NCBI GenBank assembly: GCA_044869265.1 | Contig: JBIOXD010000048.1 | Span: 16,002 to 80,001, forward strand | Reading direction: 5' to 3' | Source: Gemmatimonadales bacterium | GTDB lineage: Bacteria > Gemmatimonadota > Gemmatimonadetes > Gemmatimonadales > GWC2-71-9 | DNA: 64,000 bases | Shown: positions 3,995 through 28,341 of the stretch, piece by piece | Layout: each line of letters begins with the position of its first letter | How positions within the stretch are numbered: the first letter of the stretch is position 1 | Made by a program: the position numbers and the translations under genes | Notes under the pieces: generated by a model | Database searches by the model: none | The model's input: only the letters and a program-made list of their open reading frames with translations | What the model was told of the DNA's origin: nothing

Positions 3995-5232
3995 GCCAAA
4001 TGCTCGATGATCGCCTCGGCGAACGCGGACGTGGATACTTCGGTGGCTCCGGGCAGCTGACGCGCGAGATCGTACGTCACGCGCTGTGCCGAGATGGCGC
4101 CTTCGAGCCCGTGTACGATCGCGCGCGCCACGTCGTCCCAGCCGATTTCTTCGAACATCATGACACCCGACAGGATCACGCTGCTCGGATTGACCTTGTC
4201 CTGGCCGGCGTACTTGGGCGCGGTGCCGTGCGTGGCCTCGTATACCGCGTAGCCATCGCCGACGTTCCCGCCGGGAGCCAGCCCGAGGCCGCCGACCTGC
4301 GCCGCGGCCGCATCGGAGAGGTAATCGCCATTCAAGTTGGGAGCGGCGATGACGGAGTATTCATCGGGGCGCAGCACGAGCTGCTGGAACATGGCGTCGG
4401 CAATGCGGTCCTTAATCAACAGCTTCCCGACGTCCTCTTTGCGCTTCCCCCCATCGGCCTCCGTGACGGTCTGCTCGCTGAAGCGCTCTTTGGCGACTTC
4501 ATAGCCCCAGTCGCGGAAGCCACCCTCGGTGAACTTCATGATGTTCCCTTTGTGCACCAGCGTCACCGACGGTTTCTTGCGCTTGAGCGCGTACTGAATC
4601 GCTTTCACCACCAGCCGCTGCGACCCGAACTTGGACATCGGCTTGATGCCGATCGCGCTGCCGGGCCGGATCTTCGCGCTGAAGCGGCGCGAGAGAAACT
4701 CGATCACGGCTTCCGCTTCAGGACTCTCCGCCTTGTATTCGATACCGGCGTACACGTCTTCGATGTTTTCGCGGAAGATCACTACGTCGAGCTTGCGTGG
4801 CTCTTTGACGGGTGCGGGCACGCCGGTGAAGTAACGCACCGGGCGGATGCAGGCGTACAGGTCGAGGATTTGCCGCAGCGCGACGTTGAGTGAGCGGATC
4901 CCGCCGCCCACGGGAGTCGTCAGCGGGCCCTTGATCGCGACCCGATGCTCGCGAATGACGCCGAGCGTTTCCTCGGGCAGCCAGCTGCCGGTCTCCTTGA
5001 ACGATTTCTCCCCGGCGAGGACCTCGCGCCACACGACGCTGCGCCTGGCACCCGATGTTTTCGTGACGGCGGCGTCGAATACCTGGGCAGCGGCGCGCCA
5101 GATGTCGGGTCCCGTGCCGTCGCCTTCGATGAATGGGATGATGGGGTGGTCCGGAACGATCCAGTGGCCGTCGCGGAAATCGATTTTGGCGCCGACGGCT
5201 CCGCCCCGGCGACCTTCGACCTGGGTTGTCAT
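3991..5232 (-). CDS. icd: NADP-dependent isocitrate dehydrogenase
   Basis: 413 aa. N-terminal [46 protein letters not shown] are classical Icd motifs. Confidence 0.95.
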
Positions 5233-5345: not shown

Positions 5346-7367
5346 TTAGAGCCGATACCCTGCCAGCGTCCCCGTCGTCGTTCTCAGGAAAAGCATCCCA
5401 GCCAAGTCATCGACCGCATACACAGGCTCGCGCTCCTTCCCGAGATCGACACGCGCGCGCGGCTGGCCGCTGTCCTTGTCGATCTGGAGCAGCACATTGC
5501 CGTTCCCCTCGGGGGCGCGCGTCAGCATGAACACTGAGCTCGGCGCCGTCAGTGAAGCCTTGAAGCGTTTGCTCGCCAGCGCGGATGCTTGGCTCGAATA
5601 GCCTTGGAGCTGTGTCCCACCCTGGGTGTACGCGGTCGACAGCTGGCTGTAGACGACCTTCGCGGTTGTGTCGGTCGCAGTGCGCGCGGCCTGCGCGAAT
5701 GCGTCACCGTATGCCGACGCCGCGGCCCCGTATAACCCCGCGCGTACGGATTGAATCCGGTACAGCGCCCGAAGCAGTCCAGGGAGCTGCGGAGCCGGGT
5801 GGTAGGTCTGCTGCTTGATTTGACCATCGCGACCGAGCACGACCACGTTCTGCGGGGAGATCAGCACGATGCCGATGGGCCGCAGCTCCATGGCCGTCGG
5901 ATCCTCATTGCCCTGCAGCTTGATCTCGGGACTCAGCGCCCGAAAGCTGCCGTCCTGGCGATTGACCGCGTACAGGCGCCGATCGCGGTTCGCGAAGACG
6001 TAGAGCGTCGATCCCTCGACGGCGCGATGCAGCCGATAGCGGTCTGCCTTGTAATCGGTCGAGCTCAGCGGTTTGCCGCTCTCAATCGCGTCTTTGAACC
6101 TGGGTTGCCCGCTCGCCAGATCGATGACGTTCACTTCCGCGTTGGTCGTTGCATCTGGTCGCGAGATGTACAACAGGCCGGCCGGTGTCAGCTCCGCGTA
6201 ATCGAGCAGTCCCTTGATCTTTACGTCCTTCTGAAGCCGCAACGTGGCGGTGGCGACGTTCAGGACGTTCACATACGTCTTCGAGTCGGCATCGACCGCG
6301 AGCACGACCGCATCGCCGGAGATCATCGCGTCGACCACGTCGCCGCGCATCTTGAGCGGTTTCGGCGCGATCGTCGAGCCGTTGTAGTAGCGAGCGACGT
6401 TCAGTCCGGTTTGAACCACGCCATTGGCGCTACGAACATTGCCGGTCGCCTGATCGCGCGGCGGCCCTTCGGTCAGCATGATGATGCCGGCAGGATGCTG
6501 GACGATGTCACGAATCCAGCCGTCCACCGTCGCCGGCTTGGGCCACAGCGGCTGCCCATCGGCCAGACGATAGGCCATGAGTCTTTCGTCGTAGCTGACG
6601 TAGATGCGGTCGGGTTTTGCGACCGACTGATACAACAGCACCTTGTGCGGGAACGTACCGGACCGCGCCATTTGGAGGGTCGCCGTCCAACGGATGGCGC
6701 CGGTCTTTGCATCGAGCGCGCGCAGTCCCACGAGCGTGTAGACGACGATGACGTCGGGACCCGCCTGTAGGACTTCGAGGTTCGTGGCGCCCGCCGCCGC
6801 ACGCACGAGGCCCTGCATCAAGCCGCCCAACCCACCCTTCTTCGGCCCGCTCTGCTGAAAGAGTGATTCACTGACCCAACGCTGTGATCCGGTGCCGAGA
6901 TCGTAGAGGGCGACGAGCGGCGGGCCGGACGCGCGCTGGCCGTGAACGAGCAGCGTCCCGCTCTGCGGCAGGACGCGACGCGTCACCACCTTCGTCAGCG
7001 TCAGTTTGCGCGAGTCGAACAGCACGGTGCCCGTGACAGGATCGAAGATCATCGAGAGGCCCGGCTTTGCCGCTTCCATCAGCAACGAACCCTCGATCAT
7101 GCGCACGCTATCGACGGGCAGACCACCCAGCTCCGGCTTCTGCCACGCGATCTGCCCGCGTTCGATGTCGACGCCGGCGAGTGCCGCGTCGGTCGAGACG
7201 AGCAGCGCGCCGGCTGGAGTGATCTGTTGCCAGCGAAGGTCGCCGTTGAAGTGCAACGTCCATGAGGGCACGGAACCCACGGTTGGGTGCACTGCGGGAC
7301 GTGCGGCGGACGCTACCGGCGCGGGCGATGGAGCTTGAAGCAGCAGAAGCAGCAATGGCAGAGCCAT
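5346..7367 (-). CDS. Secreted PQQ-like/BamB-like beta-propeller repeat protein
   Basis: 673 aa. Signal-like MALPLLLLLLQAPSPAPVASA. Recurrent G-x-(I/L)-(R/A)-W motifs (GQIAWQKP, GSQRWVSE, GAIRWTAT, GQPLWPKP) typical of PQQ-like propellers. Confidence 0.6.
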   Translation of the reverse strand: MALPLLLLLLQAPSPAPVASAARPAVHPTVGSVPSWTLHFNGDLRWQQITPAGALLVSTDAALAGVDIERGQIAWQKPELGGLPVDSVRMIEGSLLMEAAKPGLSMIFDPVTGTVLFDSRKLTLTKVVTRRVLPQSGTLLVHGQRASGPPLVALYDLGTGSQRWVSESLFQQSGPKKGGLGGLMQGLVRAAAGATNLEVLQAGPDVIVVYTLVGLRALDAKTGAIRWTATLQMARSGTFPHKVLLYQSVAKPDRIYVSYDERLMAYRLADGQPLWPKPATVDGWIRDIVQHPAGIIMLTEGPPRDQATGNVRSANGVVQTGLNVARYYNGSTIAPKPLKMRGDVVDAMISGDAVVLAVDADSKTYVNVLNVATATLRLQKDVKIKGLLDYAELTPAGLLYISRPDATTNAEVNVIDLASGQPRFKDAIESGKPLSSTDYKADRYRLHRAVEGSTLYVFANRDRRLYAVNRQDGSFRALSPEIKLQGNEDPTAMELRPIGIVLISPQNVVVLGRDGQIKQQTYHPAPQLPGLLRALYRIQSVRAGLYGAAASAYGDAFAQAARTATDTTAKVVYSQLSTAYTQGGTQLQGYSSQASALASKRFKASLTAPSSVFMLTRAPEGNGNVLLQIDKDSGQPRARVDLGKEREPVYAVDDLAGMLFLRTTTGTLAGYRL

Positions 7368-7462
7368 AGGGTGGCCTCCTGAGAGGCCCCCATATCGGGC
7401 AATGGCCTACTTCGGGCGCAAGGGTCTACCTCACTCCGGTGCGGCATGGTGCTTGAAGCCAC

Positions 7463-7998
7463 ATGCTTACGGTGAGAGGATTCTCCATTCGGTCGCTCGG
7501 CGCGACGATCGTCCGCGCGCCATCGGAACCGTCGCTGCCCGACGCAGTCTTCGTCGAGGATACCGCGATCGTGCTCGATGAAGCCGCGATCATTACGCGG
7601 CCTGGCGCGCCGACGCGACGCGGCGAAACCGAATCGATAGCTCTCGTCCTGGGCGCGTACAAACCGCTGCTGCGCATCCGATCGCCGGGCACCCTCGATG
7701 GTGGCGATGTGTTGCGCGTGGGACGAAGCAACTGCTCCTGATCAACGACCGCTGGGTGGGCCGAGACTGTTTTGGCGCGATGGAGATGGTGACCGTGGCA
7801 CCCGCGGAACAGGAAGGCGCCAACGCGCTGTGGGTCAGTGGAGCGGTCATCTACCCGGCGCACTATCCGCAAACCGCCGAACGTCTCGACCGGGCGGGAG
7901 TGCGCGGAGTCGCGGTCCCGGGTGCCGAGGTGGCCAAAGCCGAAGGCGGAGTGACGTGCTGCAGTCTGGTATCTGAGGCCGCGCCCCAAGAGTCATAA
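7463..7998 (+). pseudogene. Decayed dimethylarginine dimethylaminohydrolase (amidinotransferase superfamily) gene
   Basis: Two ORF pieces (7463..7741, 7756..7998). The first has PDAVFVEDTAIV...ITRPGAPTRRGE...PGTLDGGDVLRVGR. The second has ANALWVSGAVIYPAHYPQTAERL...KAEGGVTCCSLV. The first ~55 residues and ~75 central residues of the family are missing, and the pieces are in different frames. Confidence 0.7.
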
Positions 7999-8059
7999 CA
8001 CAAAATCGCGTTGGGCGTGTACCATACCGGAGAGCATGACCTGCACCTTGGAGGATGCC

Positions 8060-8650
8060 ATGGGTCGACGCGCGCTCCTTCTCCTCGCCGCCGTTCTTGT
8101 CACAAGCGTTGCCACTGCCTGCCAGAACAGCACCGATCCCGCCGGGTCGTTCGTTGTCACGGGCCACATAGAAAACCGCACGCAAGCGTCAATTCCCGCG
8201 AACGCGCGACTCTTGGCGGTGTGGACCGTCTCGGCAGGCTCACCCGATTACAGCCTCGTTTTCGGTGAGGGCACGATCGATCGCAGCGCCGGGACGTTTC
8301 GCATCCGGTTCGATCAAGCCCCACCGTTGGCAGCGCTGAATCATGGCGAGCTCGGGGTCGCGTTTCTCATCGCCACGACGGACCAATCACTGCAGGTGGG
8401 GGACACGATCCCCAGCTCTTACCCGACGACCGAAGTCATCGGCCTCACCGGTCAGTACGCCGTGATCTTCCTACAGAATCGGGACACGCAGCAGCTGCCC
8501 AGCTGGATCGCCTCTTTCGGAGATGGATACTCGGTTGGCGTCGGTGTCAAAGTGACGAACGGGTTCGACCAGTTCGCGCCCACCAGCCGGACGAGTCCGG
8601 TGTTGATCATCGACGACCTCGCGAATATCGAGGTCGTCAACTGGACGTGA
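8060..8650 (+). CDS. Hypothetical lipoprotein
   Basis: GGAGGA precedes ATG 8060. MGRRALLLLAAVLVTSVATAC is a lipobox-type signal. Normal amino-acid composition. No family recognised. Confidence 0.55.
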   Translation: MGRRALLLLAAVLVTSVATACQNSTDPAGSFVVTGHIENRTQASIPANARLLAVWTVSAGSPDYSLVFGEGTIDRSAGTFRIRFDQAPPLAALNHGELGVAFLIATTDQSLQVGDTIPSSYPTTEVIGLTGQYAVIFLQNRDTQQLPSWIASFGDGYSVGVGVKVTNGFDQFAPTSRTSPVLIIDDLANIEVVNWT

Positions 8651-8662
8651 AGGATTTGGAGC

Positions 8663-8690
8663 GTGCGCAGTGCGCCGTGAGCGGTGCGCC
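8663..8690. repeat. 4 x 7-nt tandem array (GTGCGCN)
   Basis: Read directly: GTGCGCA GTGCGCC GTGAGCG GTGCGCC, in the 57-nt spacer between convergent genes ending at 8650 (+) and 8708 (-). Confidence 0.9.
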
Positions 8691-8707
8691 GGACTACCTT
8701 GGCCGAT

Positions 8708-9748
8708 TTACGGCGGTGGTGATTGACGGCTGAAACGCACCTCCAGCGTGCGCTGAGTGTTGACCTTGGCGCGCTTACCTCCGTAGCGATACGTGGTAAT
8801 CGCGATCAGCGAATCCTGAAGCGGAACCCCCGGCGCGATATTACGGAACCGGGTCAGAAAGGTCATCGAGCGAACATCCGTCAGTTCGGATCGCTCGGGC
8901 CGAGTGAGCGACGTTGCCGTGTAGCGGAGCTCGTAGGTAACGGGGTCGAGATAGGCCGAGCCCGCCATGTCCGCCGTGCCGATGCGCTTGGCCGGCTCGA
9001 AGTCGATGCGCACGAGCGCGTCTCCTCCGATCGTGTCGGCGCCCGCCAGCCGGAAGCAGTGATTGCTGATGAAGTTTGCGTCCCCGAGAACCTGCAGGTC
9101 GGCGCTGTGAATGACGAGCACATTCGCCGGATTCCCCCACGGTCCCCATGCTGGCTCGACAACTCGCCCGACCTGATATGGACGATCGTCGCTACTGGAG
9201 AAGCGCAGTTTCTGAACCTCCGGTTTTCCCGTGTCGCCGCGTTGATACACGGTGCGGTCGGACAGCTCGAGCGTGTACTGGAATGGATACGACTCGGCGA
9301 GCAGCTCGTAGCGGCGGGCGTTCTCCTGCAATTGACCAAAGACCGCGAGCAAGGCCGCGTCGCTAGAATCGGGTGGACCCGGGTGCGTGCAGGGCAACGC
9401 CGCGATGGTGACCGGCGGCAGCTCGATCGCGAGCCGGCGCAAAGCAACGTCAAGGGTCGTCAGGCCGTCGTTCCGGACCACAATCTGCGTGTCGAGCGGA
9501 GCGTAGCCGATTTGACGGATGCTGACGAGATACGAGCCTGCGCTCGTCCCTGCGAATGCGAACGTCCCGCGAGCATCGGTGAACTGCTTGTCCCTGTGGG
9601 GATACAGCGTGACGATCGTGTAGCCGAGGGGCTGACCGGTCTCGGCGCTCGTCACGGTCCCGCGCAGGCTGCGCTCGCTCGGACCCTGCGTGAACGCGAC
9701 CGAGGGCACCTGCAGGAGCAGCCACCAAAACGAATGTCGAGTATCCAA
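8708..9748 (-). CDS. Carboxypeptidase-regulatory-like (CarboxypepD_reg) domain protein
   Basis: 346 aa. N-terminal LRGTVTSAETGQPLGYTIVTLYPHRDKQFTDARGTFAFAGTSAGSYLVSIRQIGYAP is the typical CarboxypepD_reg beta-sandwich pattern. The annotated start is a TTG, so the start is uncertain. Confidence 0.6.
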   Translation of the reverse strand: MDTRHSFWWLLLQVPSVAFTQGPSERSLRGTVTSAETGQPLGYTIVTLYPHRDKQFTDARGTFAFAGTSAGSYLVSIRQIGYAPLDTQIVVRNDGLTTLDVALRRLAIELPPVTIAALPCTHPGPPDSSDAALLAVFGQLQENARRYELLAESYPFQYTLELSDRTVYQRGDTGKPEVQKLRFSSSDDRPYQVGRVVEPAWGPWGNPANVLVIHSADLQVLGDANFISNHCFRLAGADTIGGDALVRIDFEPAKRIGTADMAGSAYLDPVTYELRYTATSLTRPERSELTDVRSMTFLTRFRNIAPGVPLQDSLIAITTYRYGGKRAKVNTQRTLEVRFSRQSPPP

Positions 9749-9803
9749 TGTCGAACGCCGAATTTCGAAATTCTACATTCGAAATTCGACAATCGACATT
9801 CGT
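9731..9803. promoter_or_regulatory. AT-rich palindromic block at the 5' end of the 8708..9748 gene (candidate operator/promoter)
   Basis: A perfect 14-nt palindrome GAATTTCGAAATTC is flanked by the 10-nt inverted repeat CGAATGTCGA ... TCGACATTCG and repeated TTCGAAATTCGA / AATGTCGA words. It is strikingly AT-rich for this genome. Confidence 0.4.
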
Positions 9804-9845
9804 TTTTGCAATACCTGGGGCGTCAAAGGAGACAAGAGCCAGTGG

Positions 9846-10337
9846 CTAGCGGCCGATCCGCCGCAGTACATACACCGTCTCACGACCGTTGGCAGTGGCC
9901 GGATGCAGCGTCGCGGTCCACTCGTCGTTCGAGACGCGGCTGAAGGTGAACCCGCCGGTCGACGCGCCTGCCTGCCGGAAGCGCACTTGAGTCGCCGTCA
10001 CCGCGATGGCCGGAGTAGCCGTCCGGTCGCCGCGGCTGACGACGGTTCCATTTCGCAGCTCGATGCGCGACGAGTCGGTGACAGTGCGAAGCGTCGAGTC
10101 GGAGAAGGCCCGCATCAGCATCGTGGAGTCGTCCACGACGCGGTACTCCTCGAAGAAGGCGGGGTACGCTCCCCCGCTCCCGCGCCAGGTGCCGGCGAGC
10201 CACTGCAATTGCTGGAACTGCGCGACGGTCACGGTTGGGGGAGGTTGTTGTTCCCGCGAGCAACCAGGGAGGCCCAACAGCATCGCGAGTAGCGCGACCC
10301 TCACGGGCGACGATGCCGACGCGGACGCAAATAGCAT
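9846..10337 (-). CDS. Hypothetical lipoprotein
   Basis: 163 aa. Lipobox LLAMLLGLPGC. Plausible composition (W, F, Y, N present). No family recognised. Confidence 0.55.
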   Translation of the reverse strand: MLFASASASSPVRVALLAMLLGLPGCSREQQPPPTVTVAQFQQLQWLAGTWRGSGGAYPAFFEEYRVVDDSTMLMRAFSDSTLRTVTDSSRIELRNGTVVSRGDRTATPAIAVTATQVRFRQAGASTGGFTFSRVSNDEWTATLHPATANGRETVYVLRRIGR

Positions 10338-10365
10338 GATGGCCTCCGTTGTTCTCGCTCCCGTC

Positions 10366-11301
10366 TTAGCGATCCAGCGTTTGGACCCAATACCACGCGG
10401 CGAGCGCCGCGCCGACGAGGAGGAGCAAGAAAAAACTGCGGAGCGGTTTCGCCACGAACAGCCATACGTACTTCCAGGGCCAGCTCTGACGCCGGACCTC
10501 GACCCAGGCGCGGAATGTCGGGGTGATGGTGGCCTGAGCCTTGGCCAGATCGTGGGCTCGTTCGTCCCGTAGCTCTTGCGCCGCCTCCTCGCCGAGACGT
10601 GTCGCCTCCCCCAACATGCTGTTCTGCAAGCGCAGTTGCTCCTGCTGATCGCGCCGATACGCGGTGATTATGCTCTCACATTCCGCGACGAGGGCTTCAA
10701 AGTCGTTGGTGCTCACCACCCTCCCTGCGGGTTCCCCTGCATGGTCCCGTCGAATCACGCAGAACAGCTTCTCCTGGCGCGGATCGTAAGCTCTCAGGCT
10801 CGTATTCAGAAACATGCCCAGCGGGTCGGCGACGTATGGGGAAAAGGCCGTTGTGATGCGACTGCGGAGGTCCAGACGCAACAGGTCGGCAGCAAGGACG
10901 CGAGGCTGCCTCGTCGGGTCCTCTGGAGGCCAATCACTGCCCGCGCAGCCCTGGATAAGCGGTCGCAACTGCCCCGCAAAGTCTCGAAAGTCACGCTCAA
11001 ACGCTTCGAGCTCTTTGAGCCGATGCGCGGTAGTCGCAATCTGCACTCGCAGATTCGCAGCATCGAAGCGCTGCTGCATCGCGCGTAAGGCAGCTTCCGA
11101 TCCCCGCTCTGCTCGCAGCTCTTGCACGCTCTCAACCTTCACGGAGTTGAACGGAGCGTCAACGGTACCGCGACGAGAGATCAGGCGATAGTAGTGCCCG
11201 AGGAGAGAGTCGAACTCTTCAGGGGGTTGTCCCCAGGCTGGCCAACCGTTCAAGCACGCATTACTTCCGTCTTGGTTGGGTGGTCCAGTCCATTTCGACA
11301 C
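10366..11301 (-). CDS. Hypothetical protein with C-terminal membrane anchor; 5' end uncertain
   Basis: 311 aa. Coiled-coil-like Glu/Arg/Leu-rich body and C-terminal TM (FFLLLLVGAALAAWYWV). The first ~36 codons lie on the tRNA-derived repeat at 11195-11268, so the annotated N-terminus may be fortuitous. Confidence 0.5.
   Translation of the reverse strand: MSKWTGPPNQDGSNACLNGWPAWGQPPEEFDSLLGHYYRLISRRGTVDAPFNSVKVESVQELRAERGSEAALRAMQQRFDAANLRVQIATTAHRLKELEAFERDFRDFAGQLRPLIQGCAGSDWPPEDPTRQPRVLAADLLRLDLRSRITTAFSPYVADPLGMFLNTSLRAYDPRQEKLFCVIRRDHAGEPAGRVVSTNDFEALVAECESIITAYRRDQQEQLRLQNSMLGEATRLGEEAAQELRDERAHDLAKAQATITPTFRAWVEVRRQSWPWKYVWLFVAKPLRSFFLLLLVGAALAAWYWVQTLDR
11195..11268 (-). repeat. tRNA-Leu 3'-end fragment copy 1 (att-like) plus shared flank
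   Basis: TGCCCGAGGAGAGAGTCGAACTCTTCAGGGGGTTGTCCCC matches the T-arm/acceptor 3' part of the tRNA at 13214. AGGCTGGCCAACCGTTCAAGCACGCATTACTTCC follows. It lacks the 5' acceptor half. Confidence 0.85.
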
Positions 11302-11355
11302 CTAAGGAAGCTGACTCTGGCGTGGTAACCACAGTTGGTTCACCAGGAGGCACCG

Positions 11356-11874
11356 ATGCGCAGGATCATGGCGGTGGCAACGATCGTCGCGACTTTCGCG
11401 CTGGCGGGCGCGAGCGATCTGTTCGCGCAGCGTCGTGGATTCATCTTCGGATTTGGCATCGGCCCGGGCGTGACGAGTTATTCCGACCCCTTTGGGTCAG
11501 GGTCAGGCTGGGGTCTCGCGACCGATCTCAAAATCGGCGCTCAGGTTAGCAAGTCGGTGCAGGTCTATTACCTGGGCCGGACGAACTGGATCAACGCATA
11601 CTCGAACCTCGTCGCGGCGGGCATTTCGGCGCTTGGCGTCGCCTACGTCCTTCCAACCGCCCCGGTCCACATCAGTGGCGGACTGGGTCTCGCCACGTTC
11701 CTGACGGTGTGTTGCGAGAGCTCCGGCTACGAGGGGGCGGGGTTCGGCGTGACCGGCGGCGTTGGCTGGGAGTTCGCTGATCCCTGGCTCCTCGACTTCG
11801 CGCTCACATACGGCGCGCCCGGCGACATCCACGTGCTCACGGCGAGGGCGGGGCTCAGCATCCTGAGTCACTAG
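11356..11874 (+). CDS. Small secreted Gly-rich beta-barrel-like protein, paralog 1
   Basis: AGGAGG lies 7 nt upstream of ATG 11356. Signal MRRIMAVATIVATFALAGASDLFAQ. Alternating Gly/aromatic segments (GFIFGFGIGPG, GVTGGVGWEF, LDFALTYG). 172 aa. Confidence 0.75.
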   Translation: MRRIMAVATIVATFALAGASDLFAQRRGFIFGFGIGPGVTSYSDPFGSGSGWGLATDLKIGAQVSKSVQVYYLGRTNWINAYSNLVAAGISALGVAYVLPTAPVHISGGLGLATFLTVCCESSGYEGAGFGVTGGVGWEFADPWLLDFALTYGAPGDIHVLTARAGLSILSH

Positions 11875-11886
11875 CGCGGGTCGTGA

Positions 11887-11957
11887 TGCCCGAGGAGAGA
11901 GTCGAACTCTCATGGGGTGCCCCCAGGCTAGCCGACGGTTCAAGCACGCATTACTTG
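11887..11957 (-). repeat. tRNA-Leu 3'-end fragment copy 2 plus shared flank
   Basis: GCGCGGGTCGTGA-TGCCCGAGGAGAGAGTCGAACTCTCATGGGGTGCCCCC-AGGCTAGCCGACGGTTCAAGCACGCATTACTTGC. The left flank is identical in style to the flank of the real tRNA. Confidence 0.85.
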
Positions 11958-12043
11958 CAATGGATGCTTGGTAAAGTCCATTGCGACACTTAGGGAGGCT
12001 GACTCTCTCTTCGTAACCACAGGTGGTTCATCAGGAGGCACCG

Positions 12044-12562
12044 ATGCGCAAGATCATGGCGGTGGCAACGATCGTCGCCACTCTCGCGCTGGCGAGCGCG
12101 AGCGACCTGTTCGCGCAGCGCAGGGGATTCATCATCGGATTTGGCATCGGCCCGGGCGTGACGAGTGCGACCCGAGGAGGGAGTGAATGGTCAGAATGGG
12201 GTGTCGCGACCGATCTCAAGATCGGAGCTCAGGTTAGCAAGTCGGTGCAGATCTATTACCTGGGCCGGACGAACTGGGTCACGCCAACAGATCTCGTCGC
12301 CGCGGGCATTTCGGCGCTCGGCGTCACCTACGTCCTTCCAACCGCCCCGGTACACATCGGTGGCGGGTTAGGTCTCGCCACGTTCGTGCCGGTCTGTGTG
12401 TCAGATTGCTCCGAAACCGAGGCGGAAGGGTTCGGGCTGACAGGCGGCGTTGGCTGGGAGTTCGCTGATCTCTGGCTCCTCGACATGGCGGTCACCTACG
12501 GCAGGCCCGGCGGCCTCGATGTGTGGAGCGCGAGGGCGGGGCTCAGCATCCTGAGTCACTAA
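12044..12562 (+). CDS. Small secreted Gly-rich beta-barrel-like protein, paralog 2
   Basis: Same leader (AGGAGGCACCG-ATG), signal MRKIMAVATIVATLALASASDLFAQ and same framework as paralog 1. 172 aa. Confidence 0.75.
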   Translation: MRKIMAVATIVATLALASASDLFAQRRGFIIGFGIGPGVTSATRGGSEWSEWGVATDLKIGAQVSKSVQIYYLGRTNWVTPTDLVAAGISALGVTYVLPTAPVHIGGGLGLATFVPVCVSDCSETEAEGFGLTGGVGWEFADLWLLDMAVTYGRPGGLDVWSARAGLSILSH

Positions 12563-12574
12563 CGCGGGTCGTGA

Positions 12575-12648
12575 TGCCCGAGGAGAGAGTCGAACTCTCA
12601 CGGGGTTGCCCCCAGGCTAGCCAGCCGTTCCAGCACGCATTACTTCCG
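12575..12648 (-). repeat. tRNA-Leu 3'-end fragment copy 3 plus shared flank
   Basis: ACGCGGGTCGTGA-TGCCCGAGGAGAGAGTCGAACTCTCACGGGGTTGCCCCC-AGGCTAGCCAGCCGTTCCAGCACGCATTACTTCC. The leader is ~45 nt shorter than in the other cassettes. Confidence 0.85.
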
Positions 12649-12688
12649 TATTGGATGCTTGACCTAGTTGGTTCACTAGGAGGCACCG

Positions 12689-13201
12689 ATGCGCAGGATC
12701 ATGGCGGTGGCAACGATCGTCGCGACTTTCGCGCTGGCGGGCGCGAGCGATCTGTTCGCGCAGCGTCGTGGATTCATCTTCGGATTCGGCGGCGGCTCGG
12801 GCGTGACGAGTTTTTCCTACCCCGCGTGGTCAGGGTCAGGCTGGGGTATCGCGACCGATCTCAAAATCGGCGCTCAGGTTAGCAAGTCGGTGCAGGTCTA
12901 TTACCTGGGTCGGACGAACTGGGTCCTACCAGACGCTGACGTCGAATTCACCGCCGCGGGCATCTCGGCGCTCGGCGTCACCTACGTCCTTCCAGCCGCC
13001 CCAGTACACGTCAGTGGCGGGTTGGGTCTCGCCTCGTGGCTGTGTTCTGAGTGCGGGTCGGACGTAGGGTTCGGCCTGACAGGCGGCGTTGGCTGGGAGT
13101 TCGCTGATTTCTGGCTCCTCGACTTCGCGCTCACATACGGCGCGCCCGGCGACATCCACGTGTTCACGGCAAGGGCGGGGATCAGCATCCTGAGCCACTA
13201 G
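12689..13201 (+). CDS. Small secreted Gly-rich beta-barrel-like protein, paralog 3
   Basis: Signal MRRIMAVATIVATFALAGASDLFAQ, same framework. 170 aa. Ends 12 nt before the tRNA-Leu 3' end (convergent). Confidence 0.75.
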   Translation: MRRIMAVATIVATFALAGASDLFAQRRGFIFGFGGGSGVTSFSYPAWSGSGWGIATDLKIGAQVSKSVQVYYLGRTNWVLPDADVEFTAAGISALGVTYVLPAAPVHVSGGLGLASWLCSECGSDVGFGLTGGVGWEFADFWLLDFALTYGAPGDIHVFTARAGISILSH

Positions 13202-13213
13202 CGCGGGTCGTAA

Positions 13214-13296
13214 TGCCCGAGGAGAGAGTCGAACTCTCATGGGGTTGCCCCCGACGGATTTTGAGTCCGTTGCGTCTGCCATTCCGCCACTCGGGC
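13214..13296 (-). tRNA. tRNA-Leu (anticodon CAA), type II with long variable arm
   Basis: The reverse complement reads GCCCGAGTGGCGGAATGGCAGACGCAACGGACTCAAAATCCGTCGGGGGCAACCCCATGAGAGTTCGACTCTCTCCTCGGGCA. Acceptor GCCCGAG/CTCGGGC, anticodon stem ACGGA/TCCGT with loop CTCAAAA, T-arm GAGAG-TTCGACT-CTCTC. CCA is not encoded. A TATATT-like box lies ~10 nt upstream. Confidence 0.9.
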
Positions 13297-13325
13297 TAGG
13301 CGCGGAAATATAACGGTGATGTGCA

Positions 13326-13353
13326 GAAGGGGCGCAGCATGCTGCGCCCCTTC
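13326..13353. terminator. Perfect 28-nt palindromic hairpin (intrinsic terminator candidate)
   Basis: GAAGGGGCGCAGCA|TGCTGCGCCCCTTC followed by CCTCTTTTGG on the plus strand. It lies between the tRNA-Leu/cassette array and the stop of the CpxP-like gene (13400). Confidence 0.7.
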
Positions 13354-13399
13354 CCTCTTTTGGTGTCCCTCGAACTTCTCGCGGTCCCAACGCGGGTCG

Positions 13400-13921
13400 C
13401 TAGATCCCCCTGCGTCGTCCTCCGGGCCGAGGCCCGCGGTCCAGTCCGTAGCCGCCACGGTCACGCCCCCGTTGCATGCGCATCTCGGTGACGCGAGTCA
13501 TGAACCGTTCGCGCATCTGGTGGTAGCGGGCACGCTGCACCGGCGTGAGATACTTCGACATTTCCTCGTCCTGATCCTGCTCCAGTTTGAGCAGCTCGGC
13601 GCGGCCATCGCGAATACCGTCCATGAGCTTGTTCACGCTGTCGGAGTTGGCCGCAACGCCCGGCTCCATCTGATCCTCCAACGCGCGCCGACGATTCCAC
13701 TGGTCGATCATGATGGATCGGCGGCGTGTGCTGAATTTCTCCTGACTGGCCCGAAGCTTCGTGGCCTGCTCCGTCGTCAAATCGAGCTCCTGCTGTACAT
13801 AACTGGTAAACCGCCGCTCGATCTCTTGACGGAGACGGCCGACTTCCTGCGTGTCGCGCTGCTGGGCGTGCACACCCGGAACGAGCGTGACGGCCATCGC
13901 GAGTAACCATAGACGTTTCAT
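13400..13921 (-). CDS. Periplasmic Spy/CpxP-family (LTxxQ) protein
   Basis: 173 aa. Signal MKRLWLLAMAVTLVPGVHAQ. Two LTxxQ-type motifs (LTTEQATKL, LTPVQRARY) and a helical charged body. Confidence 0.7.
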   Translation of the reverse strand: MKRLWLLAMAVTLVPGVHAQQRDTQEVGRLRQEIERRFTSYVQQELDLTTEQATKLRASQEKFSTRRRSIMIDQWNRRRALEDQMEPGVAANSDSVNKLMDGIRDGRAELLKLEQDQDEEMSKYLTPVQRARYHQMRERFMTRVTEMRMQRGRDRGGYGLDRGPRPGGRRRGI

Positions 13922-13923
13922 CG

Positions 13924-14346
13924 CTACCCCTCCAATGAGCGCAGCACAGCCCGCAGCTGCTGCGCGTCGAGTTCGCGCAAATCGGTACTGTCCAACATGA
14001 GACTGGCACTGCCGACGATCTCATCGAACTGATCGAGCACATCTTTCAATTCATCGGCGCTGAGATCACCCAAATCGTCGGCGACGAGATGACTGTGCTG
14101 CGCGGTGCCGGAGCCCACTGGCACGATGCGCCGCACTGCGATCCCGCCGCCGATGAGCAGGACGATCGCGGCCGCGATCCTCAGCCAGTGCACCTCGATC
14201 CATGTTCGGCGCGATGCGGGCTGCTCGCGCAGGCCCGCAAGCACCTTGCGCGTGGTGGCCTCGACATCGAGCCGCTCGGCCGCCGATGTGCCAAGCCGCT
14301 TGGCCAGGCCTTCGAGTCTAGCGTCGCCGTTTTTAGCGTCGTTCAC
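13924..14346 (-). CDS. Putative anti-sigma factor (single-pass membrane protein)
   Basis: 140 aa. One TM (WLRIAAAIVLLIGGGIAV). 4-nt overlap with the upstream ECF sigma gene. The call rests on position only. Confidence 0.5.
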   Translation of the reverse strand: MNDAKNGDARLEGLAKRLGTSAAERLDVEATTRKVLAGLREQPASRRTWIEVHWLRIAAAIVLLIGGGIAVRRIVPVGSGTAQHSHLVADDLGDLSADELKDVLDQFDEIVGSASLMLDSTDLRELDAQQLRAVLRSLEG

Positions 14347-21604: not shown

Positions 21605-22471
21605 GTGACCCGCGTTGCCGTGATCGGCGCCGGGACGATGGGGCACGGCATCGCCTACGTCGCCGCGATCGCGGGCTACGACGTGCGACTCACCGATGCC
21701 AGAACGGAATCCTTGCCGCGGGCGATGGAGAAGATCGAAGCCCTGTTCGCGGGGGGACTAAAGCGAGGTAAGCTGACAGAAGCGGACGCGTCGGCAGCGA
21801 GGGGCCGTGTCCGCACGGTCGGTGCAATCGGTGAGGCGGTTACCGAAGCCGACGTCGTCATCGAAGCGATCGTGGAAGACCTTGTCACCAAGCAACAACT
21901 ATTCGTCGAGATCGAGCGGGCCGCCCCTCCGGCAGCGCTGCTCGCCTCCAACACGTCGTCGCTTTCGATCGCCCAAATCGCGACCGCCATGCAGAAGCCT
22001 GCGCGGCTCGTTGGCATGCATTTCTTCAACCCCGTCCACGTCATGAAGCTCGTCGAGGTCATCACGCACGGGCCCGACAGCCTGGTCGAAGCGGAACGCG
22101 CGGTCGAGCTCGCTCGGCGGCTCGGCAAGGAGCCGATCGTGGTCCGCGATTCTCCCGGTTTTGCCTCGAGTCGACTCGGCGTCGTGTTGGGCCTCGAGGC
22201 GATGCGGATGCTCGAGCAGGGCGTGGCGAGTGCCGAGGACATCGATAAGGCCATGGAGCTGGGCTACAACCATCCGATGGGACCGTTGAAACTGACGGAT
22301 CAGGTCGGCCTCGATGTGCGCCTCGCCATCGCCGAGTATCTGCACGACACGCTGGGCAAGGCGCAGTACGAGCCGCCCAGGATTCTCCGCGAGAAGGTGG
22401 CTAGGGGCGAGGTCGGGCGGAAATCCGGTAAAGGATTTTATACCTGGACCTCGCCCGAACTCGACCCTTGA
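21605..22471 (+). CDS. hbd: 3-hydroxybutyryl-CoA / 3-hydroxyacyl-CoA dehydrogenase
   Basis: 288 aa. Rossmann VAVIGAGTMGHGIA, SNTSSLSI, GMHFFNPVHVMKLVEV, GFASSRL, NHPMGPLKLTDQVGLD. Confidence 0.92.
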   Translation: MTRVAVIGAGTMGHGIAYVAAIAGYDVRLTDARTESLPRAMEKIEALFAGGLKRGKLTEADASAARGRVRTVGAIGEAVTEADVVIEAIVEDLVTKQQLFVEIERAAPPAALLASNTSSLSIAQIATAMQKPARLVGMHFFNPVHVMKLVEVITHGPDSLVEAERAVELARRLGKEPIVVRDSPGFASSRLGVVLGLEAMRMLEQGVASAEDIDKAMELGYNHPMGPLKLTDQVGLDVRLAIAEYLHDTLGKAQYEPPRILREKVARGEVGRKSGKGFYTWTSPELDP

Positions 22472-22490
22472 TCGCAGGACGGTCTACCGT

Positions 22491-24164
22491 TTAGACGGTC
22501 ACGGTGTTGGTCAGGCAGTAAGTGGATGGCGTAGAACCAGACTTGACGTGGCGTACTCGCGCTTGGAACAAACCCGTCTGACCACCGAGGATGTAGAAAT
22601 ACTGCGTGACCCCAGGGGATTGAGTGGAAACCACGTTCCACACGCCGTTGTACCAGATCGACACTTCGGTCGAGGCACTAGCATCCCCGTTCGTCCACGA
22701 GACCTTCAGGTAGCCCGACGGGGGAGGGATTTTTTGGAGCGTGCAGTTCGTGGGTGGCGCGAGTGGTGAAGCATCGACGGCCGCCGCCGCCTTGACGAGC
22801 CCATGGCCGAATTGGTCATCCCGACCAACGGGACCAAGATCCTCTGCGGTGGCGAACAGCTTATCGCGCACCTGTTCATTTGACCAAGTCGGGTTCTTAG
22901 CCTTAACCAGTGCTGCCGCCCCCGCGACGTGAGGTGCGGCCATGGACGTGCCGCACCAAAGCTCGGTGGTCTCATCTTCATAGGCGTCGCCCGGAACCGT
23001 GCTCAGCGCCCAAAACGGCGCAGCGAGGTCCACATGCACACCCCAGTTCGACGCGGAGCCCCTGCACGGGCTCGTGCTCGCGAAGGACTTGTTCGGCTGC
23101 ACTCCCGAAACGCCGATCACGTCGGTGTAAAACGCGGGGTAGACCACCTGGTTCCCACCGTCGTTACCGGCTGCAGCGACGATGACAATGTTGTTATCCC
23201 ACGCTTCAGCCACGGCCTGGCTCTGGGCGAGATCGAATGGGAGCTGGAGGCTCAGGCTTAGCACGTTCGCTGTAAAAATCGCCGCGTTGATACCAGCAGT
23301 CACTTCTGTGGTCGGACACGAGCCCCCGGAGCTGCAGGCGCCGTAGACGTAGACGTCCGCCGGGTTGACTCCGGGAGCGACGCCGATTACACCGATGGAA
23401 TTATTCCGCGCCGTCCAGATTCCGAGAACATGGGTACCGTGGCTGTTGGGGTAGACGTCGTTGCAGCCACCGCTACTCCCAGCACAATTGAGATCCGGCA
23501 CCAGCGGGAGGTCTTCGTGACCTTGGTCGTGCCCCGTATCGATGATTTGGATCTTCGCGCCGGCGCCCGTGGTTACGGCGTGGGCGGAAGGGGCTCCGAG
23601 CAGCGCGATGCCCCATGGCACTGTCTGTGTCACGACGTGGACCATGTCAGATTTGGCGAATCGGCGGCGAGTACCGAGGATTGCGCCGTGTTGTCGTGGC
23701 TCGACGTAGTCAACGAGGGGGTTGGATCTCAGAGCTGCCGCAACGGTGGCATCCATGCGTACGTGAGCTGCCCCGATGGCGTCATACAAATCGAGAACCT
23801 GGGCTCCCTGTGCTTGAAGAAGTTCCAGTCCGGCCGCGACCGTTGCCGCGCTGACCGCCGCCCGCACGCCTGTTTGTAGCACACGGCTGCTCGCTGGTTC
23901 CTTAAATGCGACGACGGCGTGGCCGGACTCCGCGGCGACGGCTGCGACGAGCGCGACGTCACTCGTATCCCAGGGGCGCGGTGCTGGGGGCAGGTCCATT
24001 CGGACCTCGGGCACATCGAGTGGTCCCCCTGTGCGCGCCGCAGCAGTGAAGGTTGGCCGACGAGCTTGCCGAGAAGCCGAGTCATTCGTCGGCGATTCGG
24101 AGCAGGCCACAACACCGATGACGAGCGCAAGTAGCAGTGAGTGAGCTTTCTCTCGGTGCAGCAT
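22491..24164 (-). CDS. S8 (subtilisin) family serine peptidase, lipoprotein, C-terminal Ig/Fn3-like domain
   Basis: Catalytic triad contexts [30 protein letters not shown] precedes ATG 24164, giving MLHREKAHSLLLALVIGVVAC (lipobox). The longer ORF start at 24260 lacks an SD. Confidence 0.88.
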   Translation of the reverse strand: MLHREKAHSLLLALVIGVVACSESPTNDSASRQARRPTFTAAARTGGPLDVPEVRMDLPPAPRPWDTSDVALVAAVAAESGHAVVAFKEPASSRVLQTGVRAAVSAATVAAGLELLQAQGAQVLDLYDAIGAAHVRMDATVAAALRSNPLVDYVEPRQHGAILGTRRRFAKSDMVHVVTQTVPWGIALLGAPSAHAVTTGAGAKIQIIDTGHDQGHEDLPLVPDLNCAGSSGGCNDVYPNSHGTHVLGIWTARNNSIGVIGVAPGVNPADVYVYGACSSGGSCPTTEVTAGINAAIFTANVLSLSLQLPFDLAQSQAVAEAWDNNIVIVAAAGNDGGNQVVYPAFYTDVIGVSGVQPNKSFASTSPCRGSASNWGVHVDLAAPFWALSTVPGDAYEDETTELWCGTSMAAPHVAGAAALVKAKNPTWSNEQVRDKLFATAEDLGPVGRDDQFGHGLVKAAAAVDASPLAPPTNCTLQKIPPPSGYLKVSWTNGDASASTEVSIWYNGVWNVVSTQSPGVTQYFYILGGQTGLFQARVRHVKSGSTPSTYCLTNTVTV

Positions 24165-24488
24165 TGGATCCTCCCTTCGCTTGAGGACTCTCGAGCATGC
24201 GGAGGTTGCGTCTAACGATTTGAAAAAGGGACGAGCGCGATTGCGTGAGGTAGAGTCCAAAGACGAGTGGAGTCGTCCAAAACCGGGATTAAATCGCGGG
24301 GTGTTGTACTAACGAGTGCAGTACGCCCAATCAACGAGCGGTGAAGCAGTAGACCATCAGGGAGATAAGCGGCCGATACGAGTGGCGAGTGGTGCGATTG
24401 GATATTCGGCAACCATTTTTTGAGCCAGCGCCGGGGCGCGCACTGGTGGATCGGTCAACTCGTGATTCTCTTGCTCTGCGGCTCGGCG

Positions 24489-25586
24489 CTAGGGGCTGGA
24501 AAACCGCCACACTCCCGCTCCACCACTTCCAAGGCGAGTGCCGATCACAAGTCTGCCCTCACCGTCGATCGTGACGGCGAGCCCGCCGCCAGCCCCCGCA
24601 GGTACGGGCAAGGTGTCCCAGGTCGCTCCATCATCACAGCTCCTGTAGAGCCCTAAATCGCTCCACGGCGGCCCTTGTCCACTTGGCGGAAAGCGGAGGT
24701 TCTCCCTGGCCACCGCGTAAAGCGTGGCATTCAGTTGGGCTAACGCGAAGACCTGGCCTTCACGCCGCGGGCGCAGTCGATAGGTCCACGTCTTGCCCGC
24801 ATCGTCCGAGCGAAGCACGCCTCCCGAAAGTCCTGCCCATACGCGATTGGAATTCTCGGGGTCAATCAAGAGCGCCTGAACAGCGTTCTCAAACCTTGGC
24901 GTGGGGTCGACGAATTCCCACGAAGTGCCGCTATCAGCGCTGCGCCAGATGACGGCGGTGAAGATTGAGGTCTCGCCACCAGCCCAGACTCGGCCCTGGG
25001 CGCTGGCGGCAACCGCGATCGTCCGGATCTGACCGCCCCCAATTTGACTTTCGTCACCTTGGACGAAGGCCCAAGTGCGTCCGCCGTCTTCGGACCGTAC
25101 AATCTGATCAAAGTACCCCATGAACAGTCTGTGCGGACGGTCCGGATTCATGCCGAGTGAATATGCCCAGCCTCGGTTTCCACGCCGGGCAGCGAGGCCA
25201 CCGTCCCAGGGGAGCCAGGTTGCGCCTCGATCTTCGGTCGCGAACACGGCGGCGTCAGTTTGCTCGTCGCTGTAAGGATAAACGCCAACGAGGAGACGGT
25301 CGGTCGATCCAGGTACGAATAAGATGGAAGACACAATGGCGTGATCTAAGCCGAGTGGTTGCCAGGTACTGTCGGCGAGGTGAAAGACACCGTTGTCGTG
25401 CGTACCGGCGTACATGCCCCAGGGGGTCGCTGCAAGGGCCGTTATCCACTGGTTCTCGAGGCCCAGAAAGGTCCAAGAGCCGCTCGTGGTCTCGAGTGAG
25501 CAGCCCTGAGGCCCAGCCGACGAATCGCCGCACGCCGACAGGAACGCCGCAGTGCAGGCAATGACCCAACTACGCGCGTCGTTCAT
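24489..25586 (-). CDS. Asp-box (BNR) repeat beta-propeller lipoprotein, copy 1
   Basis: 365 aa. Lipobox AAFLSAC. Five S/T-x-D-x-G-x-(T/S)-W Asp-boxes (TEDRGATW, SEDGGRTW, SADSGTSW, SDDAGKTW, SCDDGATW). Confidence 0.75.
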   Translation of the reverse strand: MNDARSWVIACTAAFLSACGDSSAGPQGCSLETTSGSWTFLGLENQWITALAATPWGMYAGTHDNGVFHLADSTWQPLGLDHAIVSSILFVPGSTDRLLVGVYPYSDEQTDAAVFATEDRGATWLPWDGGLAARRGNRGWAYSLGMNPDRPHRLFMGYFDQIVRSEDGGRTWAFVQGDESQIGGGQIRTIAVAASAQGRVWAGGETSIFTAVIWRSADSGTSWEFVDPTPRFENAVQALLIDPENSNRVWAGLSGGVLRSDDAGKTWTYRLRPRREGQVFALAQLNATLYAVARENLRFPPSGQGPPWSDLGLYRSCDDGATWDTLPVPAGAGGGLAVTIDGEGRLVIGTRLGSGGAGVWRFSSP

Positions 25587-26403: not shown

Positions 26404-26625
26404 GAAGCCTTAGTACCGCGCAACTCGGATGGCGTGCCCGCTGCATCAGTCACCGAAACACGGGTCACGCTACCGTTGAGCGGAGGGCTGCTCGTTCTAC
26501 GTCCCTACCTCACGCTATACCCTCGCTCTCTGTCACGCGTCACCGGAATGGCGCGCTGTCGCGGTGTCGCAACAGAGGCGGCCCGCGTTGAGCGTTCGCC
26601 CGCGGCGCCGTAGCTTTCGGTGCCC

Positions 26626-26830: not shown

Positions 26831-26866
26831 GTTGACTCGTGGATCATACCTTGGTATTACTTGAGT

Positions 26867-28296: not shown

Positions 28297-28341
28297 ACTT
28301 GGGGGCGAAGCCAGATCAGCTCTTCGCTCCCGGTTTGATGG

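Follow-up and report, generated by a model that had tools for sequence, protein, structure and literature searches.

Partial tRNA genes are regarded as attR-type footprints of integration (PMC9897764), and serial integration leaves partial tRNAs scattered in genomic islands (bioRxiv 10.1101/2020.12.28.424599). Integrated elements that decay give rise to cis-mobilizable elements (CIMEs), which keep both attachment (att) sites, attL and attR, and accretion follows (PMC5704250). Here we analyze a 64,000-nucleotide (nt) stretch of the genome of a soil bacterium of the Gemmatimonadales (assembly GCA_044869265.1, contig JBIOXD010000048.1, positions 16,002 to 80,001; hereafter the window), in which a tRNA-Leu(CAA) gene is accompanied by three tandem cassettes, each made up of a partial copy of the tRNA 3' end (the relics F1 to F3, numbered from the outermost inward), a non-tRNA flank and leader, and a gene for a predicted outer-membrane protein (OMP1 to OMP3). 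The number of cassettes differs between lineages by whole units and the genes are mosaics. On balance we consider it probable that the locus goes back to an ancient tRNA-targeted integration that left an integrase-less, CIME-like remnant, with copy number changing through unequal crossing-over and alleles through conversion and transfer.

Judged by the published definition of a CIME (PMC5704250), the locus has the relic and the tRNA and has no integrase. Among the marks of a tRNA-borne island, it shows the location at a tRNA 3' end and direct repeats with a partial tRNA copy; no Pfam domain of a site-specific integrase (tyrosine or serine recombinase) was found in any sizeable open reading frame of the window, and the base composition is not atypical, the G+C content at third codon positions of the cassettes (0.76-0.81) being similar to that of the neighbour genes. 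The whole-unit changes of copy number and the mosaic alleles that characterize a tandem paralogue cluster are both found.

Results

Layout of the tRNA-Leu(CAA) locus

The single tRNA reported by ARAGORN in the window is a tRNA-Leu(CAA) at 13214-13296 on the minus strand, which scores 57.3 bits with the Rfam tRNA model RF00005 and is 100% identical in the related contigs L002, L010, L020 and L024. An initial annotation, made by reading the sequence, had placed an 83-nt tRNA-Leu(CAA) exactly here, and both programs agree with it. The last 39 nt of the tRNA, TGCCCGAGGAGAGAGTCGAACTCTCATGGGGTTGCCCCC in plus-strand form, extend from the long variable arm, at its 5' side, to the discriminator base and recur at 12575 (1 mismatch), 11887 (one 1-nt deletion) and 11195 (3 differences, including a 1-nt insertion). 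These are the positions first proposed for the copies, although their length had been put at about 45 nt; the start-to-start spacings through to the tRNA, 692, 688 and 639 nt, come out at the values originally given, and the copies do exceed chance, as had been claimed, with no match to the 39-mer within 3 mismatches in 100 shuffles. The features of the locus are as follows.

13214-13296, minus strand: intact tRNA-Leu(CAA) (ARAGORN, Rfam), of which 13214-13252 is the source of the relics
13202-13213: tRNA 3' trailer CGCGGGTCGTAA, between the OMP3 stop codon and the tRNA
12689-13201, plus strand: OMP3, 170 amino acids (aa); first 90 nt 100% identical to OMP1, last ~120 nt 97-98% identical to the L010 gene
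12614-12688, plus strand: cassette 3 flank and leader, from which ~50 nt present in cassettes 1 and 2 are deleted
12575-12613, minus strand: F3, internal relic, 1 mismatch; the variant base is that of the L025 tRNA allele
12563-12574: 12-nt trailer copy CGCGGGTCGTGA
12044-12562, plus strand: OMP2, 172 aa; closest relatives the L012 and L010 genes (88-90%)
11925-12043, plus strand: cassette 2 flank and leader; last 43 nt 100% identical to the L002 leader
11887-11924, minus strand: F2, internal tRNA 3'-end relic, one 1-nt deletion
11875-11886: 12-nt spacer CGCGGGTCGTGA, which repeats the tRNA 3' trailer
11356-11874, plus strand: OMP1, 172 aa, predicted signal peptide and 8-stranded beta-barrel outer-membrane protein; DNA 94% identical to the L002 gene
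11235-11355, plus strand: cassette 1 non-tRNA flank (AGGCTGGCC..GTTCAAGCACGCATTACTT; variant notation of the cassette flank, AGGCTAGCC..GTTCAAGCACGCATTACTT) and leader, with Shine-Dalgarno sequence AGGAGG
11195-11234, minus strand: F1, outermost tRNA 3'-end relic (attR-like), 3 differences, outer flank GCGATAGTAG
10366-11142, minus strand: 258-aa neighbour gene outside F1, GTG start at 11142, predicted coiled coil and C-terminal membrane helix
9846-10337, minus strand: 163-aa open reading frame (ORF), no function assigned

Each of the three relics is followed by a conserved non-tRNA flank, AGGCT(A/G)GCC..GTTC(A/C)AGCACGCATTACTT, and by a leader that ends in AGGAGGCACCGATG (also written AGGAGGCACCG-ATG) directly before the ORF. 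The ORFs, of 172, 172 and 170 aa, share 83-89% of their DNA sequence, and the three units differ at 11-17% of positions. The shared flank, leader and paralogous secreted protein of about 170 aa that the first reading had assigned to every copy are thus all present, the last with a predicted signal peptide. F2 and F3 are preceded by (G/A)CGCGGGTCGTGA, and the tRNA itself similarly by GCGCGGGTCGTAA; F1, unlike these, has no tRNA trailer on its outer side but GCGATAGTAG, which reproduces the asymmetry between copies 2 and 3 and copy 1 already noted in that reading. Between each OMP stop codon and the next relic or tRNA lie 12 nt (CGCGGGTCGT(G/A)A), and the 12-13 nt past each stop codon are largely tRNA 3' trailer.

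A promoter scan of 10300-13500 returned no promoter-like site, and the sole terminator in the same interval is a hairpin at 13326-13353. This hairpin is strong (12 bp), G+C-rich (GAAGGGGCGCAGCATGCTGCGCCCCTTC) and accompanied by T-runs; it sits between the 5' side of the tRNA and the end of a gene for an LTXXQ-like protein of 173 aa, is kept in L010, L020 and L024, and is the source of sub-threshold Rfam matches to STnc320/STnc380. Over the region Rfam otherwise gave only the tRNA and sub-threshold noise. Older tRNA relics were sought at 9700-9900, 10300-10420, 8640-8720 and 7350-8050 and in the L002 spacers, and none scored above shuffles.

Cassette number differs by whole units between related genomes

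Syntenic contigs were obtained by exact-protein look-ups, and the relatives are metagenome contigs of related Gemmatimonadales. In L010 and L011, whose backbone genes are 92-95% identical to those of the window (synonymous divergence, dS, 0.14-0.29), the order is a CarboxypepD_reg gene, the 258-aa gene, a relic with 7 differences, the flank and leader, one OMP gene, the trailer and tRNA-Leu(CAA). Contigs L021-23 and L025-32 have the 258-aa gene, a relic and, between F and the tRNA or what remains of it, a single cassette. At least three cassettes adjoin the tRNA in L020, where each has a relic and one internal relic carries 6 changes, and again at least three in L024, where one and the same deletion has taken the relic and most of the flank out of both spacers (CACTAGCACCGCTCTGGATGCTTGG..). 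With single-cassette relatives on one side and relatives with at least three on the other, the copy number has changed by whole units.

Because the two L024 spacers share the same relic deletion, the units must have multiplied there after the relic was lost, and unequal recombination between units is therefore at least as likely a route as crossing-over between relics. In distant Gemmatimonadota (L014, L006-9), members of the family are likewise paired in tandem, with no tRNA present. Crossing-over between the tRNA repeats had originally been proposed: the whole-unit change that it implies is borne out, whereas the relic-less units of L024 show that the repeats are not needed.

The outer junction of F1, GCGATAGT(A/G)G|TG, is common to the window, L010, L021, L025 and L030, and the F1 orthologues carry 3-7 substitutions each, acquired independently; F1 therefore predates the split of these lineages. 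Its decay fits an approximately neutral rate over the backbone divergence (dS 0.14-0.29). Since n units come with n relics, single-unit relatives keep one, and F1 ends exactly at the last base of the tRNA, as integration of an element with a tRNA-like att site would bring about (PMC9897764; PMC5704250), we take F1 to be an attR-type footprint of a single ancient integration.

Further away, L002-5 represent a distant relative with the same flanking genes, a backbone 67-87% identical to that of the window and dS of 0.6-1.8, in which a single OMP unit is inverted (it runs in the same direction as the tRNA) and has neither a clear relic nor the 258-aa gene beside it. The L002 spacer was considered as a decayed inverted relic and set aside as suggestive only: one short block (CCCCAGGACGCGTCAGCCGGTCCAGCA) matches the cassette-3 flank, a match obtained against one of four references, with none of 500 shuffles reaching its score. 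In L012 the OMP gene has an unrelated PD40/PKD protein before it and a decayed pseudo-tRNA-Leu after it.

The OMP genes are mosaics and alleles cross between lineages

Sliding-window identities were used to look for mosaicism among the genes of cassettes 1 to 3. The genes of cassettes 1 and 3 agree at 100% of the first 90 nt and at 92-96% of the last ~120 nt, and blocks with 96-100% identity occur between cassettes. Over alignment columns 60-330 the cassette 1 gene also matches the L002 gene at 98-100% identity, while the 3' end of the L002 gene is 97-98% identical to that of cassette 2 and its 43-nt leader 100% identical to the cassette 2 leader; the L010 gene combines a middle resembling cassette 2 with a 3' end resembling cassettes 1 and 3 (97-98%). 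In the core of the gene, dS between cassette 1 and L002 is 0.034, against a backbone dS of 0.6-1.8 (saturated) between those genomes, and among the three paralogues of the window it is 0.15-0.19. These patterns of identity indicate gene conversion between the cassettes and alleles recently passed from one lineage to another, which together have reshuffled the gene bodies.

Of the relics, F2 and F3 have one change each from the tRNA and the ancestral F1 copies 3-7. Either recent duplication followed by replacement of the gene bodies with foreign alleles, or cassettes arriving singly, would account for the freshness of F2 and F3. The amplification had at first been described as old, diverged and retained; the age holds for F1, but simple divergence does not describe an array with nearly unchanged F2 and F3 and mosaic genes.

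The cassette genes encode predicted outer-membrane barrels

The OMP proteins score 13.9-14.1 bits with the Pfam families OMP_b-brl and OMP_b-brl_2, below the cut-offs of 27-28.7, and some homologues have a precomputed PF13505 match. A database search gave 76 homologues, nearly all of them unnamed and nearly all from soil metagenomes. In a family-profile scan of genome contigs only 4 loci were found, all in Gemmatimonadales/Gemmatimonadota metagenome-assembled genomes (MAGs) and none at tRNA-Leu, and an exact-sequence look-up of OMP3 in the contig index gave no match. An AlphaFold model built from 29 family members (pLDDT, the predicted local confidence score, 87) has a signal helix (H2-20) and 8 strands. 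Its best Foldseek matches in the PDB are NspA, OmpX, Ail, OmpA-TM and OmpW (E 1e-6 to 1e-4), those to NspA, OmpX and Ail having E values of 1e-6 to 1e-5 and template-modelling (TM) scores of 0.58-0.68. The gene product is accordingly predicted to consist of a signal peptide and an 8-stranded outer-membrane barrel of the OmpX/NspA/Ail type.

Sequence variation is concentrated on one face of the modelled barrel, column entropy being 1.0-1.9 bits in loops L1-L4 and 0.16-0.5 bits in the three opposite turns. By the Nei-Gojobori method, the ratio of non-synonymous to synonymous divergence (dN/dS) is ~1.3 in the loop blocks vs. 0.22 in the core, where the loop value is indicative only because the blocks were picked as the variable ones. 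Paired cysteines occur in loop 3 of many alleles. In the alignment of 29 members every sequence closes with ..(I/L)S(I/V)LSH, the terminal His being invariant, and the usual C-terminal beta-signal with its final aromatic residue is not found in this family. In two Gemmatimonadota MAGs (L015 6001-6454 and L016 2980-3386) the family member aligns in two frames and is probably a frameshifted pseudogene or a sequencing error.

No recombinase is recognized in the window

Genes were called crudely from third-position G+C, and coding-like ORFs of at least about 160 aa together with long gap ORFs were scanned against Pfam. Among the coding-like ORFs of at least about 160 aa in the whole 64 kb there was no Pfam match to an integrase, excisionase or transposase, which agrees with the absence of such genes recorded in the initial annotation; the matches obtained were to housekeeping enzymes, peptidases, an extracytoplasmic-function (ECF) sigma factor, a TetR regulator and a MazF-like toxin. 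An exact search for the cassette junction GTTCMAGCACGCATTACTT gave 0 matches in IMG/VR and 3 in Joint Genome Institute (JGI) metagenome contigs (L017-19), a collection evidently without the L010 samples; as these three contigs share no other similarity with the locus, the matches are due to chance. The 3' 25-mer of the tRNA likewise had 0 matches in IMG/VR, where no relative of the OMP family was found either, so there is no sign of a phage carrier. The same junction and tRNA-end searches of IMG/VR and the JGI metagenomes yielded nothing related that could be a parent integrative and conjugative or integrative and mobilizable element (ICE or IME) with the same att site.

The ORF beside F1, listed with 311 aa, was examined as a recombinase or as reading through the relic, and both ideas were rejected. 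The starts of its homologues place the real start at GTG 11142, 52 nt beyond F1, which leaves 258 aa, and the relic indels are not multiples of three, which speaks against read-through. The 258-aa protein had no Pfam, PHROG or PDB match; its AlphaFold model (pLDDT 80) is a long coiled-coil hairpin with a C-terminal membrane helix, for which Foldseek found nothing significant (best E 0.05). The gene, which is absent from L002, is an accessory gene of the clade and not the missing recombinase. Its homologues also occur in defence-island-like settings (L033 2075-2818; L034 4377-5099): that in L033 adjoins an NmeDI_C restriction-enzyme gene, and that in L034 has as neighbours an E2-like gene of the cyclic-oligonucleotide-based anti-phage signalling system (CBASS), an XRE/ImmA pair, a proteasome-like gene, an HNH gene and a SNIPE/T5orf172 nuclease gene.

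The 163-aa ORF, present in L025-29 and absent in L010 and L002, is part of the variable DNA that separates the tRNA from the conserved CarboxypepD_reg gene. Just upstream of the start of the CarboxypepD_reg gene (9748, minus strand), the intergenic DNA contains a short, A+T-rich tandem repeat at 9759-9802 (CGAAATT six times, or a 14-nt unit, TTCGAAATTCGACA, 2.8 times), which could be an operator or promoter element.

Other insertions at tRNA ends and other duplications

The tRNA 3' ends of these genomes are recurrent insertion points and the OMP family is a recurrent passenger. In L025 (68-504; Logan SRR24888034_368675) a different insert of 407 bp lies between tRNA-Leu(CAA) and the OMP cassette; it contains an 85-aa ORF without a Pfam match, and its boundaries are the end of the tRNA on one side and, on the other, a relic of 30 nt together with 8 nt of trailer. 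The anticodon stem of the tRNA carries compensatory changes in this lineage (GGGGA/TCCCC). In L021-23 (L021 1388-2049; L022 1055-1822) only 10 nt of the tRNA end follow the cassette, succeeded by unrelated DNA that encodes a methyltransferase-like protein (phrog_6608), the tRNA itself lying off these contigs; L021 and L022 represent another strain from the same JGI samples as L010 and L011, the L010-type samples being JGI 3300085327 and 3300085757.

At a different tRNA, L001 (MAG CAVQSR010000004.1, contig_19051) and L013 contain a 9.1-kb segment (L001 4959-14113) that holds an OMP family member. Its boundaries are tRNA-Pro(GGG) (minus strand, 14039-14113) and, at 4959-5001, 43 nt that repeat the 3' end of this tRNA exactly and in direct orientation, with an extra 19-nt partial tRNA-Pro copy at 4854-4872. 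The segment comprises an HNH-like gene (phrog_6544), Rieske and ferredoxin genes and, by the tRNA, a 496-aa ORF without a family. The ORFs by tRNA-Pro (496/533 aa) and at the far end of the segment were considered as integrases and rejected, only a weak Cro/YdaS-like helix-turn-helix (HTH) being seen, and no integrase was recognizable in the 9.1 kb.

The window also has a second tandem segmental duplication (within 21976-31268), in which 24488-26476 and 28341-30331, each with a BNR/sortilin-like gene and an HTH_18 gene, are 85.6% identical. These units are flanked by partial 3' copies of a 3-hydroxyacyl-CoA dehydrogenase gene (21976-22448 vs. 27816-28288, 89%), of which there is a further copy (28200-28296 vs. 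30330-30426, 83%); the adjoining pieces, including the MazF-like toxin gene at 26877-27431, are rearranged copies, and no integrase is present. Elsewhere, at 56246-57367, an ORF with baeRF family 10/12-like domains lies between methylmalonyl-CoA mutase and carboxyltransferase genes.

Discussion

In the history that we favour, the region from 9.8 to 13.3 kb would be a variable spot downstream of tRNA-Leu(CAA). An ancestral element carrying a copy of the last 39 nt of the tRNA would have recombined site-specifically into the tRNA gene, whereby the tRNA was rebuilt and the old 3' end was displaced to become F1, which abuts the 258-aa gene that had formerly lain downstream. The surviving part of the element would be ~690 bp without an integrase, consisting of the flank and leader, one OMP gene and the 12-nt trailer, and the cassette would represent either the leftover of the integrated element or its whole cargo. 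RecA-type unequal crossing-over, in which F pairs with the tRNA end or, as the more general case, one unit with another, may then have produced from one to at least three cassettes, depending on the lineage, whose bodies have been reshuffled by conversion between cassettes and by horizontally acquired alleles, with the change concentrated in four loops. The array may supply a small repertoire of surface-protein variants, plausibly under pressure from phages or other surface-recognising agents, and is probably not a self-moving element any longer. This outline resembles the tRNA-targeted integration and subsequent amplification of the initial annotation: the architecture and the changes in copy number agree with it, while the integration step itself we infer from the architecture alone, as no empty site, parent element or cognate integrase was found.

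Several observations weigh against this history. Neither a cognate integrase nor a larger parent element was found in the window, IMG/VR or the JGI metagenomes. The comparison of orthologous tRNA-Leu(CAA) loci that had been proposed at the outset did reveal differing copy numbers, but an empty site, in which the tRNA would be followed directly by CTACTATCGC and the 258-aa gene, was not found among the relatives. The remnant is unusually tight, with 12 nt from stop codon to tRNA and a leader of ~120 nt, unlike what random decay of a large element would leave, and the G+C content of the cassettes (0.62-0.63) lies within that of the flanks (0.61-0.69). F2 and F3 are nearly intact despite a core dS of 0.15-0.19 between the gene bodies, and the inverted cassette of L002 is predicted by neither direct-repeat recombination nor simple integration.

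Some of these points would be met by tandem accretion, that is, serial site-specific integration of single-gene cassettes by an integrase encoded elsewhere or on a helper element, which we regard as a minority possibility. The ~690-bp unit, with its ORF, tRNA-like att and leader, would be circularisable, and each insertion would turn the intact tRNA end into a relic. Relic decay does track position (3 differences in F1, 1 in F2, 1 in F3), with F2 and F3 fresher than the divergence of the gene bodies predicts; each cassette is more closely related to a gene of another genome than to the rest of its array; the unit is tightly packed, its tRNA-like site fitting between stop codon and leader; L025 has a second, unrelated integrase-less mini-insert at the same tRNA; and a near-identical gene lies by tRNA-Leu(CAA) in the distant L002 genome. 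That L002 copy is, however, inverted and has no recognisable relic, the mosaic blocks are typical of gene conversion, and the relic-less duplication in L024 means that homologous recombination suffices. Nor is there an integrase in the 64 kb, a match to the junction or tRNA end in IMG/VR (the JGI metagenome scan giving only the 3 chance-level junction matches) or an OMP family member on viral contigs. We think it unlikely that the ~690-bp units are living non-autonomous tRNA-att cassettes, circularising and serially inserted by an integrase acting in trans. Were this so, Gemmatimonadales would possess a store of outer-membrane variants that is integron-like, built on a tRNA att site and open to horizontal exchange, and the 407-bp insert of L025 and the 9.1-kb tRNA-Pro segment of L001 would be further cargo of the same trans-integrase system.

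An origin without any mobile element seems improbable to us. Here the OMP gene would be a native convergent neighbour of the tRNA, duplicated illegitimately with breakpoints 39 nt inside the tRNA and upstream of the leader, and later indels would have made the outermost relic. Such local segmental duplication would explain the native-like composition of the cassettes and has parallels in the tRNA-free tandem pairs of distant Gemmatimonadota (L014, L006-9) and in the other tandem duplication of the window (24488-26476 and 28341-30331), with its partial copies of the 3' end of one flanking gene. It would, however, leave n-1 relics for n units, where we find n, with one still present in single-unit relatives; that F1 ends exactly at the 3' terminal base of the tRNA in four lineages would be a coincidence for a deletion endpoint but is to be expected of an att footprint; and the relics that accompany other inserts at this tRNA end are of different lengths (10, 30 and ~60 nt). 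Compatible with any of these origins, although highly improbable, is that the internal relics have been kept for an RNA role, their antisense T-arm and variable-arm hairpins, placed in the mRNA immediately behind each stop codon, acting as 3' stabilisers or terminators of the upstream OMP gene. F2 and F3, which follow a gene, are nearly intact while F1, which follows no OMP gene, is decaying, and the hairpins GAGAGAGTCGAACTCTC and GGGGTTGCCCC are predicted in every copy; yet the folding energies are no better than those of shuffles (z -0.5 to -1.7), the relics have no U-tract and no terminator call, L024 kept its genes and lost the relics in both spacers, and one internal relic of L020 has 6 changes. 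As for an artefact in which one cassette was expanded in assembly, many OMP homologues do lie on 0.5-1 kb contigs and such repeats trouble assemblers. Against this, a 50-nt indel and differences at 11-17% of positions separate the units, reads are longer than the 39-mers that the units share, and arrays were assembled independently in two other studies (L020, L024); the divergence of the units and these independent arrays make assembly expansion very unlikely, to the point of being nearly negligible.

If the history of integration, decay and amplification that we prefer is right, the locus offers, in the little-studied phylum Gemmatimonadota, a clean case of a tRNA integration hotspot turned into a nursery for surface-protein variation, in which loops are reshuffled and alleles cross between genomes that are saturated at synonymous sites of the backbone. 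For annotation, it suggests that partial tRNAs can mark units of as little as 0.7 kb with no integrase nearby.

The nearest described counterparts are the CIMEs and tandem accretions related to ICESt1 of Streptococcus thermophilus and those at the tRNA-Lys islands of S. agalactiae (PMC5704250), with which the locus shares its bounds, attL being the rebuilt tRNA end and attR a displaced partial tRNA. It is also like CIMEs in having no integration or transfer genes, in the att copies between tandem units and in repeated integration at the tRNA, as seen in L025. It differs in scale, the unit being ~0.69 kb with one cargo gene where described CIMEs measure several kb, and in that no related integrase-bearing parent is known, multiplication is possible without att copies (L024) and the host phylum is Gemmatimonadota. 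The tycheposon islands of Prochlorococcus (bioRxiv 10.1101/2020.12.28.424599) and partial-tRNA footprints (PMC9897764) likewise have direct repeats of the tRNA 3' end at their ends, with older inserts pushed outward and degraded, integrase-less remnants; those elements are, however, 9-23 kb long or carry integrases and replication modules, whereas here a single gene is tandemly repeated.

Integron arrays are comparable in their compact single-ORF units, in a recombination-site-like sequence between the ORFs and in serving as a store of variants. The locus differs from them in having no intI, attI or attC, and in that each unit has its own leader and ribosome-binding site; its inter-ORF element is tRNA-derived, a straight copy of the tRNA 3' end plus leader whose folding is no better than that of shuffles. 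Comparable surface proteins are encoded by the Neisseria opa genes and by the OmpX/Ail/Lom family, some members of which are carried by phages and plasmids. The lpl cluster of Staphylococcus aureus, a tandem paralogue cluster whose evolution proceeds by unequal crossing-over and gene conversion (PMC2568036), is similar in its strain-variable copy number, mosaic alleles and conserved recombination anchors. With these tandem surface-paralogue clusters (lpl, opa, OmpX/Ail/Lom) our locus has in common hypervariable surface loops, here on a small barrel of 8 predicted strands, and it departs from them in that the OMP family is lineage-specific, its C-terminus reads ..SILSH, the array lies in a tRNA att footprint, and no phase-variation repeats were seen in the OMP array. 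The locus is best filed as an unusually small decayed tRNA-integrated element combined with an ordinary tandem-paralogue dynamic.

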